Below are positions 2,792 to 64,000 of a DNA stretch of 64,000 nucleotides, piece by piece; the stretch's first letter is position 1; every line of letters begins with the position of its first letter. This stretch comes from a phage: the sequence record NC_135728.1, one strand, 5' to 3'. Made by a program: the position numbers and the translations under genes. The notes beneath the pieces were generated by a model. It was not told where the DNA came from, ran no database searches, and worked only from the letters and a program-made list of their open reading frames with translations.

Positions 2792-3709
2792 ATGATGAAG
2801 TATTTTAATGCAGATGACCTAGTAGACAAAGGTCTTGTAACCAGTCGGTATTATCCAGATCTTGGATTAAAGATCTATAAATATGCCAGAAAAGTATTCT
2901 ACAACAATCTGTGGCATTTGTCTCCGCGTTTACTGGAGTGCCGAGGTATTGTTGTTGGCAATGAGGGGAATGTTGTGGCATGGCCTTTCACAAAAGTATT
3001 CAACTTAGGAGAAAACTCCACCAACCTACCGGACAGTAAACTTGTTACTGCGGTAGAGAAAAAGAACGGATTCCTCGGTGTGGTATCATCTCATAAAGGT
3101 GAACTATTGTTCTCAACAACCGGGTCTCTTGATTCCCCATATTGTAACCTCGCAAAAGAAACCATCAGGGAGCAATGTGGTAATTTAGATCTTATCAAGA
3201 AGGTTATGGGCAATGAAAACATGACATTCATGTTTGAAATTTGCCACCCTTCAGATCCGCATATTGTTCAGGAAGATCATGGCGCATATTTGATAGGTTG
3301 CAGATATAATGATTCTGGAATAATGCTACCAGAAGCAGCTTTAGATGGGATTGCCAAATACCTTGGTGCAAAACGTCCTCACACTGTGCGTGAAATTCCG
3401 TTCAGCTATGCAAAAGAATTAGCTGCAGAAACAAGAGGTGAAGGGTATATGATTCGTAAGCCTTACTACCCTTATGATCTGCAGCTGAAGATCAAGTCTC
3501 CATACTATCTGGCACGGAAGGCAGTAATGAGGGGTAAAGCTTGGAAGATTTGGGATGATGATATCTTTAAACGTGTTGACGAAGAGTTTTACGGTATGGT
3601 AAAATTTATTCGTAGCAACTATACAGAAGATGTGTGGAATTGCTTATTAGAGCAGGAGCGTCGTGAGATACTGGACTACTATTTCCACAACGAGGACTAT
3701 ATGCAATGA
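2792..3709 (+). CDS. ATP-dependent RNA ligase-like nucleotidyltransferase (Rnl1/Trl1-type KxNG motif)
   Basis: Motif I-like EKKNGFLGVV (cf. Trl1 KANG, T4 Rnl1 KEDG); GAGGAA RBS before ATG 2792; divergent from the kinase/phosphatase genes. Confidence 0.55.
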   Translation: MMKYFNADDLVDKGLVTSRYYPDLGLKIYKYARKVFYNNLWHLSPRLLECRGIVVGNEGNVVAWPFTKVFNLGENSTNLPDSKLVTAVEKKNGFLGVVSSHKGELLFSTTGSLDSPYCNLAKETIREQCGNLDLIKKVMGNENMTFMFEICHPSDPHIVQEDHGAYLIGCRYNDSGIMLPEAALDGIAKYLGAKRPHTVREIPFSYAKELAAETRGEGYMIRKPYYPYDLQLKIKSPYYLARKAVMRGKAWKIWDDDIFKRVDEEFYGMVKFIRSNYTEDVWNCLLEQERREILDYYFHNEDYMQ

Positions 3710-4056
3710 AGAAGTGGATTGTGTGGCTTGATGATTTTAGAGATCCGTCAGATTATGGACTCCCAGACGCTCTGTGGCTAAAGAATTCTTCTGAGTTTAT
3801 GGATTTTCTTAATGATAAGAGAAAGCTCTACAGACGCGTATCTGAGTGGTATTTTGACAATGATCTAGGTGAAGTGCTTGAAGGGTACGACTGCTTCTCT
3901 GCGCTAGAGGAGAAATTTGTATTCGGAAAGCCACCACTTATTGACAACGTGATTATTTTCGTGCATACTTCTAATCCATCGGCAGCTCGTAAATTTATGC
4001 TTGCTGCTGACTCATTCAAGAAGTTTGGAATAGAGATCAAACAAAACATCTACTAA
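3706..4056 (+). CDS. hypothetical protein (116 aa)
   Basis: ATGA start/stop overlap with the ligase gene; no recognised motif. Confidence 0.5.
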   Translation: MKKWIVWLDDFRDPSDYGLPDALWLKNSSEFMDFLNDKRKLYRRVSEWYFDNDLGEVLEGYDCFSALEEKFVFGKPPLIDNVIIFVHTSNPSAARKFMLAADSFKKFGIEIKQNIY

Positions 4057-4064
4057 GGACATTT

Positions 4065-4826
4065 ATGCGACGACTGATTATTATCTCCGGTGCTGGTTTG
4101 AGCGCTGAATCTGGTATTCCAACTTTCCGATCTGGTAGCACTGCAATGTGGGAGAATTTCAGCATCGATGAGGTGTGCAACATCCACACCTTTGCCAAGA
4201 ACTACTATAAGGTGCATGACTTTTACAATGCACGTCGTGTAGCTCTGGGCAGTGTTGATCCTAACCTTGCACATCTTCGGATCGCTGAGTGGTATTCCCG
4301 CTGGCCTGGTCGTGTGATCAACCTTACCACCAATGTAGATGATTTGCTGGAGCGTGCTGGTGTAAAACATGAAGATATTTTACATGTCCACGGGTATTTG
4401 CCTGAAATCACCTACGAAGATGCTGAAGGTAACGATGTAATTAAAAATATCGGATACACGGAGGTAGATACAGGCAAGTATACCTGGGTTAAGCCTAATG
4501 TAGTGTTCTTCGGTGAGGTTGCTCCTAAGTATACAGACATGTATGACCTGTTGACATCTCTCACAAGCAATGATATGGTGATCCTGGTAGGTTGTTCTAA
4601 CACAGTTATTAATTTTAACTGGGAATTGTTTCCTGCTACTTGTAAAGGCACAAAACTGCTGATTGTAAACAAGTATGACTCGCAGAGTGCAGATGGAAGT
4701 GGCATTTCACGTAGCGACCTTTATCAATATGAGGATCGCGGGATCCCTGTATGGTTTAACGGTGCTGTTGACGCTTTCTCTGATAAAGCATTTATTGAAA
4801 CTGTAGAAAACTTTATGGAACTTTAA
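4065..4826 (+). CDS. Sir2-family NAD-dependent deacylase / ADP-ribosyltransferase homolog
   Basis: GAGLSAESGIPTFR (sirtuin GAGxSxxxGIPxFR), TTNVDDL, catalytic-His region LHVHGY, VVFFGE; no Zn-ribbon cysteines. Confidence 0.8.
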   Translation: MRRLIIISGAGLSAESGIPTFRSGSTAMWENFSIDEVCNIHTFAKNYYKVHDFYNARRVALGSVDPNLAHLRIAEWYSRWPGRVINLTTNVDDLLERAGVKHEDILHVHGYLPEITYEDAEGNDVIKNIGYTEVDTGKYTWVKPNVVFFGEVAPKYTDMYDLLTSLTSNDMVILVGCSNTVINFNWELFPATCKGTKLLIVNKYDSQSADGSGISRSDLYQYEDRGIPVWFNGAVDAFSDKAFIETVENFMEL

Positions 4827-59677: not shown

Positions 59678-60056
59678 TTGCTGCTTCTCCTGCATTCATC
59701 AGATCTGCCATAGCGTCGCCCACGAAGAGAACAACCCCATCGTTCACCGCGTCAGCATCATCTTTGTTGACGTTGCTGAATTTAGGACACACAGCAATAA
59801 TCATATAGACACCGTTACCCATCTGAACTGTCCGTGTGGTGCACATCATGGCTGTATTTGTACCTTCTTTGAAGGCGAAGCCTTGAAGACGCTCCTCTAG
59901 AGTGTTACCGGTAGATTTCAGAAGCGCCAGCTCGTCCAAGGCATAGATGATATCTCCGGAAGTTAGTGTTGCCTTGCCATCAGATACCATAATCACTCCA
60001 TCAGCACCATCAAGCTTAGAGGCTTCAAAGATATTGATATCCCAAATATTTTTCAT
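59667..60056 (-). CDS. hypothetical protein
   Basis: ATG after GAGGAAG. Confidence 0.5.
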   Translation of the reverse strand: MKNIWDINIFEASKLDGADGVIMVSDGKATLTSGDIIYALDELALLKSTGNTLEERLQGFAFKEGTNTAMMCTTRTVQMGNGVYMIIAVCPKFSNVNKDDADAVNDGVVLFVGDAMADLMNAGEAANED

Positions 60057-60328
60057 CACGCTTCCTCATCATCTAAGTAATCATCAAGAGAGGTGAAGAT
60101 TTCACCGAAGTATTCTAAGATTTCTAGCTCACGTGTGGTGCAGCAAACATAATCGCCTTGGTCGTCCTTAATAGTGGCCTCTTTACCCAGAATATCTACT
60201 TCAAGTTCATCGTTCAACAGGACGGCCCCTGTGTAAACTTTGTCGGCTGTGCAGTCCCGAAAAGCAGAGTCTTTCTCCAGATAGTCTGGCTTAACCTTGG
60301 CTTTAATTCGTTGATATTGTTTGGTCAT
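60056..60328 (-). CDS. small acidic protein, paralog of 60392-60646
   Basis: Start MTKQYQ after AAAGGGGA; shares KP.Y...D.AF.DCT with the neighbour. Confidence 0.5.
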   Translation of the reverse strand: MTKQYQRIKAKVKPDYLEKDSAFRDCTADKVYTGAVLLNDELEVDILGKEATIKDDQGDYVCCTTRELEILEYFGEIFTSLDDYLDDEEA

Positions 60329-60359
60329 TGCTGTGGTCCCCTTTCGTTTTGATAGGGCC

Positions 60360-60388
60360 ATTATATTAGGCCCTATCACTGTTGTCAA
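60360..60388 (-). promoter_or_regulatory. sigma70-like promoter TTGACA-17-TATAAT with hairpin in spacer
   Basis: Read on minus strand; ATAGGGCC/GGCCCTAT palindrome overlaps the spacer. Confidence 0.4.
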
Positions 60389-60391
60389 GTA

Positions 60392-60646
60392 TTAATGTTC
60401 AGGTTTTACAAAAACTACCTCATTAACAGTGCACCAGACAGAGTCTCCTTCATCATCTTTAAAGGTAAGGCACTGTGCTGAGTTTTCCAGCTCATCAATC
60501 TCTTCTTGTGATAAAGGGGCCCCTTCTTCCAGAAGGGCTTTTACCAGAGGGTTCTCACAAAACTCTGCTTCATAGATTGCACCGATTGTGCAATCTTTAA
60601 AAGCTCGGTCATTTGCAACGCATTCTGGCTTCAAAGTAATTTTCAT
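60392..60646 (-). CDS. small acidic protein, paralog of 60056-60328
   Basis: AAGGAGA RBS. Confidence 0.5.
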   Translation of the reverse strand: MKITLKPECVANDRAFKDCTIGAIYEAEFCENPLVKALLEEGAPLSQEEIDELENSAQCLTFKDDEGDSVWCTVNEVVFVKPEH

Positions 60647-61104: not shown

Positions 61105-61299
61105 CTAAACGAACTCTGCAAGAGTTGTGTTGTTCACTGCACCGCAGTAAATGGAGTATCCCAGCCCATTAGAGTGCAGAAACCACGGCGTGCCGAAATT
61201 ATCTTTCACGTAGACATCGCCGTTGTTTGTAAAGGGCCAATATTCTTCACCAAGGGTAAAATACCTATTCATACCTTCAGCAAGATACTTTACTTTCAT
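61105..61299 (-). CDS. hypothetical protein
   Basis: ATGA-coupled; GAAGAGGACC leader. Confidence 0.45.
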   Translation of the reverse strand: MKVKYLAEGMNRYFTLGEEYWPFTNNGDVYVKDNFGTPWFLHSNGLGYSIYCGAVNNTTLAEFV

Positions 61300-61523
61300 A
61301 GGTCCTCTTCAACAACTACAAACTTGGCAAGCAAAGTGGTTCCGTAGATATGATACTCACCGTTTGCGAGGTGAGAGATATACCAGGCAACCCCTTCCTC
61401 GTCTTTAATCATTTTGTTTGCACGAGCTTTATCGTAATAAACCTCGTAGGTCTTTCCTTCTTTAAAGAATGACAGGTCTGTCATCTTTTCTTCTACAAAG
61501 GTAGCTTTAACCAAAGTCGTCAT
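61296..61523 (-). CDS. hypothetical protein
   Basis: AAGGAGA RBS. Confidence 0.45.
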   Translation of the reverse strand: MTTLVKATFVEEKMTDLSFFKEGKTYEVYYDKARANKMIKDEEGVAWYISHLANGEYHIYGTTLLAKFVVVEEDL

Positions 61524-61804
61524 TGATCGGTCTCCTTCTTGTTAAGTCTGAATACTGCAATAATAGTATTCCCAAGGTGCAGTGTCAAGTCATTTCCAAG
61601 GTACCACAGCATCCCACGGTCATCTTTAATGAAAGGGTAACAATCTGGTGCCTTCCAGACATTGTACACTTTCCCAACCTGAAAGAAATCAGGCCCTGTT
61701 GGTATTTTGGTGCCAGGCCACACTTGAGATACCTGAACACACTCCACCTGCATAATAACAGGAATGGTCATGGATGTAAATGTTTTTGTTGGCTCTACTA
61801 CCAT
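61520..61804 (-). CDS. hypothetical protein
   Basis: Start MVVEPTK after AAGAGGAGA (track start 61894 would overlap the polymerase exon). Confidence 0.45.
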   Translation of the reverse strand: MVVEPTKTFTSMTIPVIMQVECVQVSQVWPGTKIPTGPDFFQVGKVYNVWKAPDCYPFIKDDRGMLWYLGNDLTLHLGNTIIAVFRLNKKETDQ

Positions 61805-61853
61805 AAAAGTCTCCTCTTTGCTCAACAGCACCTCCCTGTGCTGATAGTTTACA

Positions 61854-62207
61854 TTAGTGACAATCCCCCCAGTTACGACCACACAAGTATTCACCTGTGA
61901 TCTGGAACGGGACTCCCATCATTTTAGAAGCTTGCCAGAAGCAATGCACCACCATTTCACCCACAGGGCTCCAGATAAGTTCAAGCTTTCCGTCATCGTT
62001 CAGGATAGGATCGTACACCGTGTTTCCGTCTCTGTCAACCACTTCGTTTCCGTCCTCATCCTTGCGTGCCTTTTTGTACTTATGACCGTCGAACACATGA
62101 AGTTTGGCTTCCTGCTCTGCCTTAAATGCCTCCAGTTGCTCAATTGTGTCGAAGGTGTACACAGTCTTATACTTAGGCGTGTCAGGCACTTGAAGTTGGT
62201 ACTCATC
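61854..62207 (-). CDS. DNA polymerase family A, C-terminal exon (exon 2)
   Basis: Begins DEYQLQV, completing motif C (H|DE) with exon 1; ends GRNWGDCH like the Pol I C-terminus (GENWDQAH); same frame as exon 1. Confidence 0.7.
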   Translation of the reverse strand, partial: DEYQLQVPDTPKYKTVYTFDTIEQLEAFKAEQEAKLHVFDGHKYKKARKDEDGNEVVDRDGNTVYDPILNDDGKLELIWSPVGEMVVHCFWQASKMMGVPFQITGEYLCGRNWGDCH

Positions 62208-62483
62208 CAATAGTTCAGGTAGGTCGTTAAGCTACCCCGCACCATTACGTGCATAGCCATACGTTTTCACGTAGGATCGGACCATCTCATATTCCTATGA
62301 TAAGCAACCACAGGAATCCTCCCATTTCGACCGCACTTGCTGGTCTACTTCCTTTCGGAATGGCCTCTGAGCGTTCGCTCTTTTGAGCGCTTCGTTGCGG
62401 ATTACCTTGCCATAAGGTTTAGGCTTCCCGCAGTTAAAGAGGTTATTCGACATAGATTACTCTATGAAGCCACAATGTTATTT
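62208..62483 (-). ncRNA. putative group I self-splicing intron (276 nt) in the DNA polymerase gene
   Basis: Interrupts the ORF between the H and D codons of motif C; exon ends in U, intron ends in G; GUGG guide 11 nt into intron can pair with exon CCAU; P-like CUGCGGGAAG, Q-like AAUCCGCAAC, P7 strands GACCA / UGGUC. Confidence 0.65.
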
Positions 62484-64000
62484 ATGGTAATAAATAATAC
62501 GACGAACACCTTCATCGTACCACCCACGCTTCACCATTTGGTGGTGCATGAGTATCCCAACTAAGTCACACAGCGATGCACCACCATTTTGTTGGTATGC
62601 ATTAAGTAAAGAGTGTTTAGATCTGGTCCAGATAGCATGACCATCGAAAGAGTAGATAAACTTCTTACCTGTTGCTTCCCAGAATTTCTCCAGATCCTCT
62701 TTGCGCCCCTTAAGACCGGGGTTGGCATCCCAAAGTGCATCTATTACCCTTTGCCCCAACTCTGGAGAGATGTCCAACATATCTGCAACTTTATCTTTTT
62801 GTGCCCCGTACATAACACCATACGTGATAGGTTTACCGTCGTTACGGGACACCTCTCTGCCTGCTACTTTTGTATATGCCTCGGCATTGTTTTGGTGTGC
62901 GTCTCCGTTACTTACAACATCATAATACAGGCCGTTGTCGAACTCAAAGGCACCCCAAGCCCCGATAAGCTGCTCTAAGTTGGACCCGTCAATACCGATC
63001 TGAAAGTATCCGGGAGGAACACCCCATAGACTACGCATCTCTTTACCCATAACCACTTTAGGAGATGGTTTAGGCATGTTTGCACAAATACTGTGTTTCT
63101 GTCTGGAAGTGTTTGTTAGCCCAGAACTTTTAGCAGGAAGCTTATGGTCAATCTTCAAACGTGGGTGATTAAGAAGACCAGTATCAACCTTATCCTCCTT
63201 GATTGGGTCAAGGACCGATCTGCGGTTTCGCAATGATAACCACAAGACGATATCTTTAGCCATCTCTCCGTTCAATTTTTCAAGATTCGGACACAGGTGT
63301 CCAAACGTATCTTTCAGTTGCGGAGAAGTAATAAGTGCCCTGGCTTTTCTACGTATTTTCCCGAACACTTCCTTTTTAATCCTTTCGGAGTTAGGAAAGC
63401 TTCGGAACTTGTGCACGGTTGTCTGGAACTTAGCATCAGTTTTGTTCCAGAAGTTGATAATTAGGTCACAATACTCTGACTCTAAAAGCTCGTCCATATA
63501 AGCATATACTCGTGCATCAACATCTGCATCAGGTAGAGCTTTCTTCTTGCTGTCTTTAGTTACATCCTTAGTTCTCCACATTGTCGGGAGCCAGCCAGCG
63601 CTGATCAGATACCGCTTAATGTCGTCCTGATTGCTGATTTTCATAGGTATCTTGCAGTCCGGCATTCGCTTCTGCTGTAGATCACTTATTGCCTGATCCA
63701 TCAGCTCTTTAGGCAAAGGGTGTGGTGTGGAAGTTCCCTTAATATAGCCTCTCAAGAAATCAGCCATCTTATCGGGGTCTTTGCAGCCCATCTCTTCACA
63801 CCATTTTATCCCCATCTTGCTGACATCCCCTGTAGAGGTAAATGCTCTCTTAGGCGGGGCTTTGAACTCTAAAGCGCTCATGTCTACAGGATAGCCAAGC
63901 TTATCTTTTAACCATTTCCAACCATTATTAGAGATTGTCCCGTCTTGGTTAAACGGCTTTTCAGGGAACTTGGGCCGCTGAGACATTGACAGCTCTTTTA
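62484..64000 (-). CDS. DNA polymerase family A, exon 1 (partial; N-terminus may lie beyond the window)
   Basis: Motif B-like KPITYGVMYGAQ; ends ...VRRIIYYH (cf. Pol I RMIMQVH-DE); reading frame stays open upstream of the track start at 63986. Confidence 0.8.

Follow-up and report, generated by a model that had tools for sequence, protein, structure and literature searches.

How can a single DNA polymerase be made from a gene whose catalytic motif C is interrupted by 276 nucleotides (nt) containing stop codons? The question is raised by the last positions of the window, i.e., the whole 64,000-nt stretch of phage DNA that was analyzed. There, a first-pass annotation had described two minus-strand open reading frames (ORFs) in the same frame, separated by a 276-nt gap with in-frame stops, and had read the gap as a group I intron that splits a family A DNA polymerase gene. 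The ORFs and the stops are present in the sequence: the upstream ORF contains KPITYGVMYG and ends VRRIIYYH, and the downstream one starts DEYQLQV and ends GRNWGDCH, as described. Our analysis indicates that the polymerase gene is that of an rV5-like Vequintavirus and that the 276-nt insert is almost certainly a group I intron, of subgroup IA2, that splices itself.

Exon 1 (positions 62484 to 64000, minus strand, as for all features described below) is partial, as its ORF runs on past the end of the window at 64000. It is 97.7% identical to rV5 and carries motif A (IGIDGSNLE, 62973 to 62999) and motif B (RNDGKPITYGVMYGA, 62802 to 62846, which contains the KPITYGVMYG stretch). Its 3' end, ...UAC CAU with the U at 62484, encodes ...IIYYH. 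Exon 2 (61854 to 62207) consists of 117 codons plus a TAA stop and starts with GAU GAG at 62207; its first residues, DEYQLQV, include the catalytic Asp-Glu of motif C, and the corresponding ORF, in the same frame, spans 61854 to 62210 and reads (L)DEYQLQV...GRNWGDCH up to its stop. The motifs of family A (T7 gp5-like) polymerases are found in order, namely, A (D..LE), B (K...YG..YG), and C (HDE). Exon 1 alone matched the Pfam family DNA_pol_A with an E value of 2.9e-7, under the curated cut-off. An alignment with T7 DNA polymerase (E value, 1.4e-14) covered motifs A to C and crossed the junction (yyHDEyql versus wvHDEiqv), and the C terminus NWGDCH, with its terminal His, resembles the NWAICH of the T7 enzyme. 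As judged from these sequence features, the assignment of the gene product as a T7 gp5-like family A DNA polymerase is supported; the first-pass annotation had likewise placed it in family A.

In a covariance-model search, which had been suggested as a check, the interval 62208 to 62483 matched the Rfam group I intron family RF00028 with 64.7 bits (gathering score, 50; E value, 1.6e-15) over model positions 1 to 253 of 253, and RF00028 was the sole Rfam family above threshold in the 64-kb window. The gap between the His codon, which ends at 62484, and the Asp codon, which starts at 62207, is exactly 276 nt, the intron lying precisely between these two codons of the HDE of motif C. We then evaluated the fold on 11 homologous introns, all inserted at the same H/DE site (the slash marks the insertion point), and scored 60 pairs. 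Pairing was found in 98.6% of the cells, and 27 of the 60 pairs showed compensatory changes. None of 500 shuffles reached the observed values, and slid controls paired at 33 to 43%. Together, these results establish the ribozyme fold and back the reading of the insert as a group I intron with strong covariation.

The order of the helices begins with P2, a 6-bp hairpin with a GUAA loop (62451 to 62466), which was 100% paired with compensatory changes in 6 of 6 pairs. The 5' strand of P3 (62437 to 62442) pairs with its 3' strand (62318 to 62323), and 3 of 5 pairs were compensatory. The P4-P5 domain (62396 to 62432) comprises P4, formed by UGCGGG and UCCGCA, and a short P5 hairpin; the P-like and Q-like segments that had been pointed out earlier, CUGCGGGAAG and AAUCCGCAAC, turned out to be the two P4 strands (P and Q elements). 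P6 and P6a (CGCUC-AAAA-GAGCG) occupy 62372 to 62394, the site of the homing endonuclease gene in relatives, and a single compensatory pair was found in P4 and likewise in P6. Four compensatory pairs each were observed in the P8 hairpin (62292 to 62316) and in the P9 hairpin, which has a GAAA loop (62260 to 62273). Two peripheral hairpins, P9.1 (62239 to 62252) and P9.2 (62218 to 62236; 100% paired, 3 compensatory pairs), are located 3' of the Rfam match. As the Rfam alignment stops 50 nt short of the 3' splice site, these two hairpins rest on our own model and on covariation.

The P7 helix had been proposed as GACCA with UGGUC, and this is the one claim that we had to correct. That candidate was 80% paired, showed no compensatory change, and had one pair that formed in only 1 of the 11 homologs, so we rejected it. 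The true 5' strand is GGCCA (62361 to 62365), which pairs with UGGUC (62280 to 62284) in a pseudoknot with P3; this helix was 98.2% paired with 1 compensatory pair, GGCCA and UGGUC being replaced by GACUA and UAGUC in relatives. The GACC sequence is instead the 5' strand of P7.2 (62329 to 62345; 100% paired, 3 compensatory pairs), which an invariant GUA linker (62346 to 62348) joins to P7.1 (UUCC-GAAA-GGAA, 62349 to 62360), a hallmark of subgroup IA2. Introns of subgroup IA2 are recognized by two additional helices, P7.1 and P7.2, which lie between P7 and P3' and are connected by G-U-A (PMC3428280), and the intron was therefore assigned to this subgroup. Single-sequence folding recovered the local hairpins P2, P4/P5, P6a, P7.1, P8, and P9 and missed the pseudoknotted core; its z-score was only -2.8, which is weak evidence by itself.

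The splice sites were defined by pairings with both exons. As had been noted, the last base of exon 1 is U and that of the intron is G; the latter (omega-G, 62208), which marks the 3' splice site, did not vary among the 11 homologs. The internal guide sequence CAUUGUGG (62470 to 62477) accounts for both P1 and P10. In P1, GUGG (62470 to 62473) pairs with the exon 1 sequence CCAU (62484 to 62487), a pairing already recognized in the first-pass annotation, and this helix, including the U.G pair at the 5' splice site, is likewise invariant in 11 of 11 homologs. In P10, contiguous with the P1 guide, CAUU (62474 to 62477) pairs with the exon 2 sequence GAUG (62204 to 62207); this helix was 97.7% paired, and the exon 2 start GAUGA is kept by all intron-bearing alleles. 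The predicted ligated-exon junction is TATTACCAT/GATGAGTAC, and the junction-spanning peptide of the spliced polymerase would cover IIYYHDEYQLQVPDTPK. Intron-less Vequintavirus relatives contain the uninterrupted sequence TATTACCAT/GATGAGTACCAA. When the joined protein was compared with those of close intron-less relatives (98 to 99% protein identity), another of the suggested checks, the latter were contiguous exactly at H/D within a single ORF, exon 2 directly following exon 1. At the nucleotide level, intron-less rV5_ev156 and JohannBauhin are identical to the ligated exons of the window over 18 nt on each side of the junction. Furthermore, the 276-nt intron of the sister phage RudolfGeigy has the same ends as that of the window, its spliced protein is exactly GenBank QXV84155.1 (a joined coding sequence [CDS]), and in BASEL records the polymerase is given as a joined CDS with the same junction. 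Altogether, these comparisons establish the splice junction between the His and Asp codons, and we conclude with high confidence that the full gene encodes a single 925-amino-acid (aa) enzyme in which the catalytic HDE of motif C is restored.

We infer from this architecture that the RNA would catalyze its own removal. The gene would be transcribed as a single pre-mRNA, in which the guide GUGG would pair with the CCAU end of exon 1 to form P1, with the U.G pair at the splice site. P7 would bind an exogenous guanosine that attacks after U62484, the adjacent guide CAUU would then pair with the GAUG start of exon 2 to form P10, and the freed 3'-OH of exon 1 would attack after the terminal G62208. 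Ligation would yield ...UAC CAU/GAU GAG..., bringing the HDE of motif C back into one polypeptide. Unspliced RNA would give only the truncated ...YYHK product, devoid of one catalytic Asp-Glu pair, and since the truncated product lacks these residues, splicing would be needed for replication.

The in-frame stops bear on the possibility that the insert is removed from the protein or during translation, as an intein or by ribosomal bypass like that of T4 gene 60. The two ORFs share a frame, 276 is divisible by 3, and an intein-like in-frame insert exists elsewhere in the polymerase gene of relatives, all of which could fit such a scheme. However, an in-frame UAA at intron nt 4 to 6 (62478 to 62480) lets unspliced RNA be translated only two codons into the intron (...YYHK), so that the unspliced minus-strand ORF stops at 62478 with the C terminus ...VRRIIYYHK, and additional in-frame stops follow downstream within the intron. 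The insert matched no protein family in Pfam and evolves via RNA base-pair compensation, and 276 nt far exceeds the known bypass gap of 50 nt in T4 gene 60. We rejected removal at the protein or translation level on the grounds of the in-frame stops and the ribozyme fold, and we regard its probability as negligible.

Nor does the intron appear to encode a protein. The sole ORFs touching it, one of 52 aa inside the ribozyme core (62295 to 62453), whose rV5 equivalent is annotated as hypothetical protein gp222, and one of 86 aa (62000 to 62260), gave no Pfam match at an E value of ≤1. As this region evolves by base-pair compensation, we consider both ORFs spurious and rejected them as genes. Likewise, the ORF list and Pfam revealed no homing endonuclease ORF within 62208 to 62483, consistent with the first-pass annotation.

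Without splicing, the gene would be fractured, and two polypeptides, an N-terminal one ending YYHK and a C-terminal one of 117 aa, would assemble noncovalently. NrdA of phage Aeh1, split by mobE, provides a precedent, and unspliced HNH-split genes have been cited as further precedents (PMC7344957). In addition, the rV5 record contains two separate "DNA polymerase" CDSs, and the Asp codon is directly preceded by a TTG codon. However, no Shine-Dalgarno-like sequence (e.g., AGGAGG) was apparent by eye before this TTG (...ccugaacuauug), and the break would fall between adjacent active-site residues. A mere spacer would also leave unexplained why the 276 nt form a full-length ribozyme and why compensatory changes have preserved its helices. 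Moreover, intron-less alleles are single ORFs, and the homologous intron of phage CB7, which carries an HNH gene at the same H/DE site and is roughly 75% identical to that of the window, splices according to reverse transcription-PCR (RT-PCR) (PMC7344957, Table 3). A fractured gene is thus very improbable, and splicing of a group I intron remains the preferred reading.

The intron was at least 99% identical in 22 phage records and 100% identical in the 8 of these that were listed individually; it is 100% identical to the introns of rV5 and MaxTheCat. In the Vequintavirus records, alleles without the intron occur side by side with alleles carrying the 276-nt intron or a larger one, the flanks being >93% identical. 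The intron measures 276 nt in rV5, MaxTheCat, and RudolfGeigy and 328 nt in JEP1; it reaches 842 to 843 nt in WalterGehring and Av-05, 771 to 772 nt in K54_rec2 and A5-4, and 687 nt in CB7, all five with an HNH gene, and 919 nt in PVP-SE1, with a LAGLIDADG gene. In relatives, it is the P6 loop of this intron that houses the HNH or LAGLIDADG gene. The introns of other Vequintavirinae share with that of the window an identical site, an identical or nearly identical 5' end (AAAUAACAUUGUGGCUU), a homologous 3' domain, and the same helices, whereas the version found in the window and in rV5 lacks an endonuclease gene and has a short P5 and a short P7.1. Compared to the JEP1/WalterGehring type, the window intron has nearly identical ends but carries many compensated substitutions in its central core, from P2 to P8, and the intron family is therefore mosaic. 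Some relatives also contain an in-frame, intein-like insert elsewhere in the polymerase gene.

After losing its endonuclease gene, such an intron might have decayed and self-splice inefficiently, so that a host or phage factor is needed or poor splicing limits the polymerase. The absence of an ORF, a P5 domain much shorter than in most relatives, and the modest folding z-score would be in line with this idea. One HNH-associated CB7 "intron" failed to splice (PMC7344957), showing that intron homology gives no guarantee of activity. Yet every core helix is intact, including P7, where G is bound, the terminal G and the U.G pair are preserved as well, and the window intron outscores several endonuclease-bearing relatives against Rfam (64.7 versus 39 to 41 bits). 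Furthermore, the 22 records in which it is at least 99% identical include plaque-isolated phages, e.g., rV5 and MaxTheCat (a BASEL isolate), and the polymerase is encoded by an essential gene. We give a decayed or helper-dependent intron a slim chance and retain a self-splicing one.

The same intron is already annotated as spliced in BASEL records, and intron insertion at H/DE has been published for T7-like phages. Our literature searches found no description of the rV5-type polymerase intron, and the 2013 rV5 paper gives a 775-aa polymerase and mentions introns for the terminase only. The rV5 reference record NC_011041 contains a truncated polymerase of 775 aa, a second, small CDS named "DNA polymerase," and two spurious ORFs that lie within the ribozyme. 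Many relatives' records are annotated in the same way, the actual product being one 925-aa enzyme. Intron-blind pipelines will miscount genes at this locus and will base polymerase phylogenies on a protein without motif C. The main value of our analysis accordingly lies in annotation, and the biological addition is small, namely, one more case of a selfish intron residing in an essential gene, at its most conserved codons. One backbone that carries unrelated endonuclease families (HNH and LAGLIDADG) and also exists in ORF-less forms offers a handy natural series in which to follow how endonucleases are gained and lost.

As the window copy is devoid of the endonuclease gene present in relatives, it may be either an endonuclease-loss derivative or a passenger mobilized in trans. 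Intron-less alleles fall into two classes, the first, to which JohannBauhin belongs, identical to the intron-bearing flank (GATGAGTACCAA) and the second, to which V18 and DrSchubert belong, with 4 clustered synonymous changes, at +3, +6, +9, and +12, in the first 4 exon 2 codons (GACGAATATCAG). We tentatively propose, as a route that is possible though rather unlikely, that the ORF-less intron is mobilized in trans during coinfection by the HNH endonucleases of related phages, the two intron-less classes representing cleavage-susceptible and cleavage-resistant targets. Such endonucleases may come from the P6 loop of sister introns or from the free-standing HNH gene that several relatives carry directly downstream of the polymerase gene. 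If this is true, the 276-nt intron would be no dead end, and a homing arms race would have left a natural three-way polymorphism at the polymerase locus of Vequintavirus. "Collaborative homing," reportedly described by Bonocora and Shub and by Zeng et al., both in 2009, concerns group I introns that lack an ORF and have a free-standing homing endonuclease gene next to them. The window resembles this system in having an ORF-less intron at the putative target site of related phages' endonucleases but differs from it in that, according to the window ORF list, no HNH gene adjoins the polymerase gene.

Other IA2 introns in phage family A polymerase genes occupy sites 674 and 676, in the fingers subdomain, and all have HNH nicking endonucleases (PMC3428280). 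They are similar to the window intron in subgroup, in host gene, and in targeting a conserved functional motif, but their insertion sites (E. coli numbering) are different. The closest parallel in position comes from T7-like phages. PhiI and W31 carry an intron at position 881 of the polymerase as numbered in E. coli Pol I (PMC3428280, citing Bonocora & Shub 2004). This site, 881, corresponds to His/Asp of motif C, and we checked directly that the polymerase gene of the T7-like Yersinia phage vB_Yep_15 is split there (AWVH/DEIQV). The T7-like introns share with that of the window site 881, subgroup IA2, the U at the exon end, the exon 2 start GAUGAG, and the guide form ..CAUU-GUG..; where present, their endonuclease gene lies in P6/P6a, as in the endonuclease-bearing relatives of the window intron. 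The similarity between the window intron and the T7-like introns was too low for blastn, and the polymerases are distant kin, with an alignable stretch found over only ∼180 residues (query 330 to 510). The T7-like intron is 601 nt long, contains an ORF, and lacks P2 in the Rfam alignment, whereas the window intron is 276 nt long, is ORF-less, and has P2, P9.1, and P9.2. Together, these comparisons establish the homology of the insertion site and indicate that the H/DE site is common to very different phage groups, i.e., Vequintavirinae, Vibrio myophages, and T7-like podophages.

As the first-pass annotation had noted, two minus-strand ORFs of the window lie in the same frame, 276 nt apart; all the strings it quoted were found where it placed them. 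The upstream ORF enters from past the window end (64000) and terminates with ...VRRIIYYHK and a stop at 62478, and the second (61854-62210) reads (L)DEYQLQV...GRNWGDCH and a stop. The His codon (last base U, 62484) and the Asp codon (first base 62207) are exactly 276 nt apart, with an in-frame UAA at nucleotides 4-6 of the interruption. This polymerase region is 97.7% identical to that of coliphage rV5, and more than 100 Vequintavirus genomes are similar. Exon 1 (62484-64000, partial) matched Pfam DNA_pol_A weakly (E 2.9e-7). The conceptually spliced protein matched T7 DNA polymerase structures (E 1.4e-14), and a single alignment spanned motifs A (IGIDGSNLE in the window and aGIDaSgLE in T7 DNA polymerase), B (KpitYGvmYGa and KtfiYGflYGa), and, across the junction, C (yyHDEyql and wvHDEiqv), which bears out the proposed family A identity. 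The C terminus, NWGDCH, has NWAICH as its counterpart in T7. Since the intron splits adjacent catalytic residues, neither ORF alone is a possible active polymerase.

A covariance-model search of the whole 64-kb window returned RF00028 as the sole Rfam family at threshold, with a match over the whole model at 62258-62493 on the minus strand (64.7 bits against a gathering score of 50; E 1.6e-15). From the Rfam alignment and inspection, we built a structure model of the full intron (62208-62483, minus strand). P1 pairs exon CCAU with GUGG, placing a U.G pair at the splice site, and P10 pairs GAUG of exon 2 with the guide bases CAUU, which immediately precede GUGG. The model further contains P2 with a GUAA loop, P3, P4 (UGCGGG/UCCGCA), a short P5, P6 and P6a, P7 (GGCCA/UGGUC), P7.1 with a GAAA loop, a GUA linker followed by P7.2, P8, P9 with a GAAA loop, P9.1, P9.2, and a final G at 62208. 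Helices P7.1 and P7.2 linked by GUA are the stated signature of subgroup IA2 (PMC3428280), to which the window intron, as modeled, belongs.

We evaluated the fold on an alignment of 11 homologous introns from which endonuclease inserts had first been taken out. The model left 98.6% of cells paired, with compensatory double changes in 27 of the 60 pairs, values that none of 500 shuffles matched. When the 3' partners were slid by 1 to 3 columns as a control, pairing fell to 33-43%, with 0-7 compensatory pairs left. Every helix had at least one compensatory pair except P1, which is invariant, and P10, which is nearly so. The window intron is thus a complete, covarying IA2 ribozyme with canonical splice-site geometry, and the proposal of a group I intron was upheld by both the Rfam match and the covariation. 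The P and Q segments proposed earlier equal the two strands of P4; the P7 proposed with them, GACCA/UGGUC, failed the covariation test on the 11 sequences and was rejected, GACC being the 5' strand of P7.2. The intron finding is real, and its first interpretation is correct apart from P7.

The exact His-Asp junction was corroborated by natural alleles. Many Vequintavirus genomes lack the intron, V18 and DrSchubert among them; in these, the same protein region is one ORF with 98-99% identity, and the DNA is uninterrupted exactly at the predicted junction. In intron-less rV5_ev156 and JohannBauhin, TATTACCAT is directly followed by GATGAGTACCAA, matching the window exons at every nucleotide over at least 18 nt to each side of the junction; the window exon junction therefore matches natural intron-less alleles. 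In the sister phage RudolfGeigy, the intron is also 276 nt long and has the same ends; the protein spliced at these sites (925 aa) is exactly GenBank QXV84155.1, a joined CDS from the BASEL collection, for which, according to the BASEL paper, intron boundaries were annotated via comparative genomics. The CB7 intron, which holds HNH gene CB7_50 and separates polymerase pieces CB7_51 and CB7_49, occupies the same site, and its splicing in infected cells was established by RT-PCR and sequencing (PMC7344957, Table 3). The window intron would be spliced by standard two-step guanosine-initiated transesterification, and translation of unspliced RNA would stop at the UAA two codons inside the intron. 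Splicing is probably essential, because 22 phage records share the intron at 99% identity or more (the eight individually listed at 100%), plaque-isolated phages such as rV5 and MaxTheCat among them.

Homologous introns were found at the identical position in many phages. Those without an endonuclease gene measure 276 nt in rV5, RudolfGeigy, and 241Ecol014PP, 328 nt in JEP1, 317 nt in TH18 and 19-1-2, and 254 and 253 nt in Vibrio phages K470 and 10AMN. An HNH gene is present in WalterGehring (842 nt), Av-05 (843 nt), Klebsiella phage K54_rec2 (771 nt), and A5-4 (772 nt), a different HNH type in Pectobacterium phage CB7 (687 nt), and a LAGLIDADG gene in Salmonella phage PVP-SE1 (919 nt; 660-1578 of L014, L numbers denoting sequences of relatives). 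Every endonuclease gene sits in the P6 loop; that unrelated families share one backbone and site implies independent invasion or replacement of these genes. The ends of the rV5-type and JEP1-type introns are nearly identical and their cores diverged but compensated, a sequence pattern that points to recombination among intron lineages. The window copy has no endonuclease gene by ORF and Pfam analysis, as first described.

The genus is polymorphic at this locus: of 60 records sampled across the 113 that matched, about half were intron-less, about one fifth had the 276-nt form, and the remainder had larger forms. Comparison of window 62196-62207 with relatives L005, L006, L020, and L021 and with L018 and L019 separated two intron-less classes. 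In one, exon 2 starts with GATGAGTACCAA, exactly as in the intron-bearing window; the other, GACGAATATCAG, found in V18, DrSchubert, B9-1, and typing phage 14, has four clustered synonymous changes at exon 2 positions +3, +6, +9, and +12. GAUGA is retained by every intron-bearing allele in every genus. Two explanations fit, neither of them proven: P10 pairing may constrain intron-bearing alleles, or the GACGAATATCAG variant may be a target resistant to a homing endonuclease. Two phages named as "ev" derivatives of rV5, rV5_ev168 (LR694610.1) and rV5_ev156 (LR694165.1), are intron-less here, whereas rV5 itself is intron-bearing; they may have recombined with other phages or lost the intron precisely.

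A free-standing HNH gene directly follows the polymerase stop in 241Ecol014PP (L002 5137-5784), where it lies beside an ORF-less 276-nt intron, and in Av-05 (L010 3272-3910), K54_rec2 (L009 3339-4001), CB7 (L011 3489-3974), and Vibrio K470 (L012 1994-2641); it is absent from the window. Four of the five proteins are 25-38% identical to intron-encoded HNH proteins, and that of K470 had no match among them. A second group I intron (Rfam 39-47 bits, with a 149-151 aa ORF inside) splits motif B of the same gene between ITYG and VMYG in TH18 (L008 ~620-1353), Av-05 (~1091-1824), K54_rec2 (~1183-1896), and CB7 (~1458-2170), and is absent from the equivalent window position (~62817/62816). Exon 1 of 241Ecol014PP (3107-4078) and JEP1 (L007 307-1278) contains a 972-nt insert between ...SNGDAH and NNA..., in frame, stop-free, and annotated within a single ORF of 1132 aa; it resembles an intein and has no counterpart in the window. 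Small tandem ORFs that are weak mutual paralogs lie downstream of the window polymerase gene on the minus strand, at 61105-61894 and 60056-60646 (61520-61894, 61296-61523, and 61105-61299, pairs at E 1e-5 and 2e-3; 60056-60388 and 60392-60646, E 3e-10).

The 2013 rV5 paper gave the polymerase as 775 aa, mentioned only terminase introns, and missed this one. The rV5 reference record still splits the polymerase into two CDSs and annotates two intronic ORFs as hypothetical proteins gp222 and gp221 (L001 4548-4706 and 4741-5001). Their window equivalents (62295-62453 and 62000-62260, minus strand) fall within the ribozyme core or span the 3' splice site; gp222 and gp221 are almost certainly not genes. 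The window intron is already known through spliced GenBank sister genomes, an experimentally spliced homolog, and a published site. What remains of value is the annotation correction, together with a set of introns at a single site, ORF-less or carrying HNH or LAGLIDADG genes, usable for the study of intron and endonuclease turnover.

In E. coli Pol I, motif C is H881-D882-E883. Three intron insertion sites are listed for phage family A polymerase genes in PMC3428280: 674 (SPO1, SP82, Bastille, and Pf-WMP3), 676 (phiL7), and 881, where T7-like PhiI and W31 carry IA2 introns with HNH in P6a. T7-like Yersinia phage vB_Yep_15 (PV596791) has a 601-nt group I intron (L017 793-1393; Rfam E 1.8e-7) whose ORF (878-1273) is annotated "DNA polymerase," exon 2 carrying no polymerase annotation. 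This intron separates AWVH from DEIQV, and exon 2 starts with GAUGAG as in the window, which makes it the same site. With the site-881 introns and vB_Yep_15, the insertion site, the predicted subgroup, and the endonuclease position thus all have precedents.
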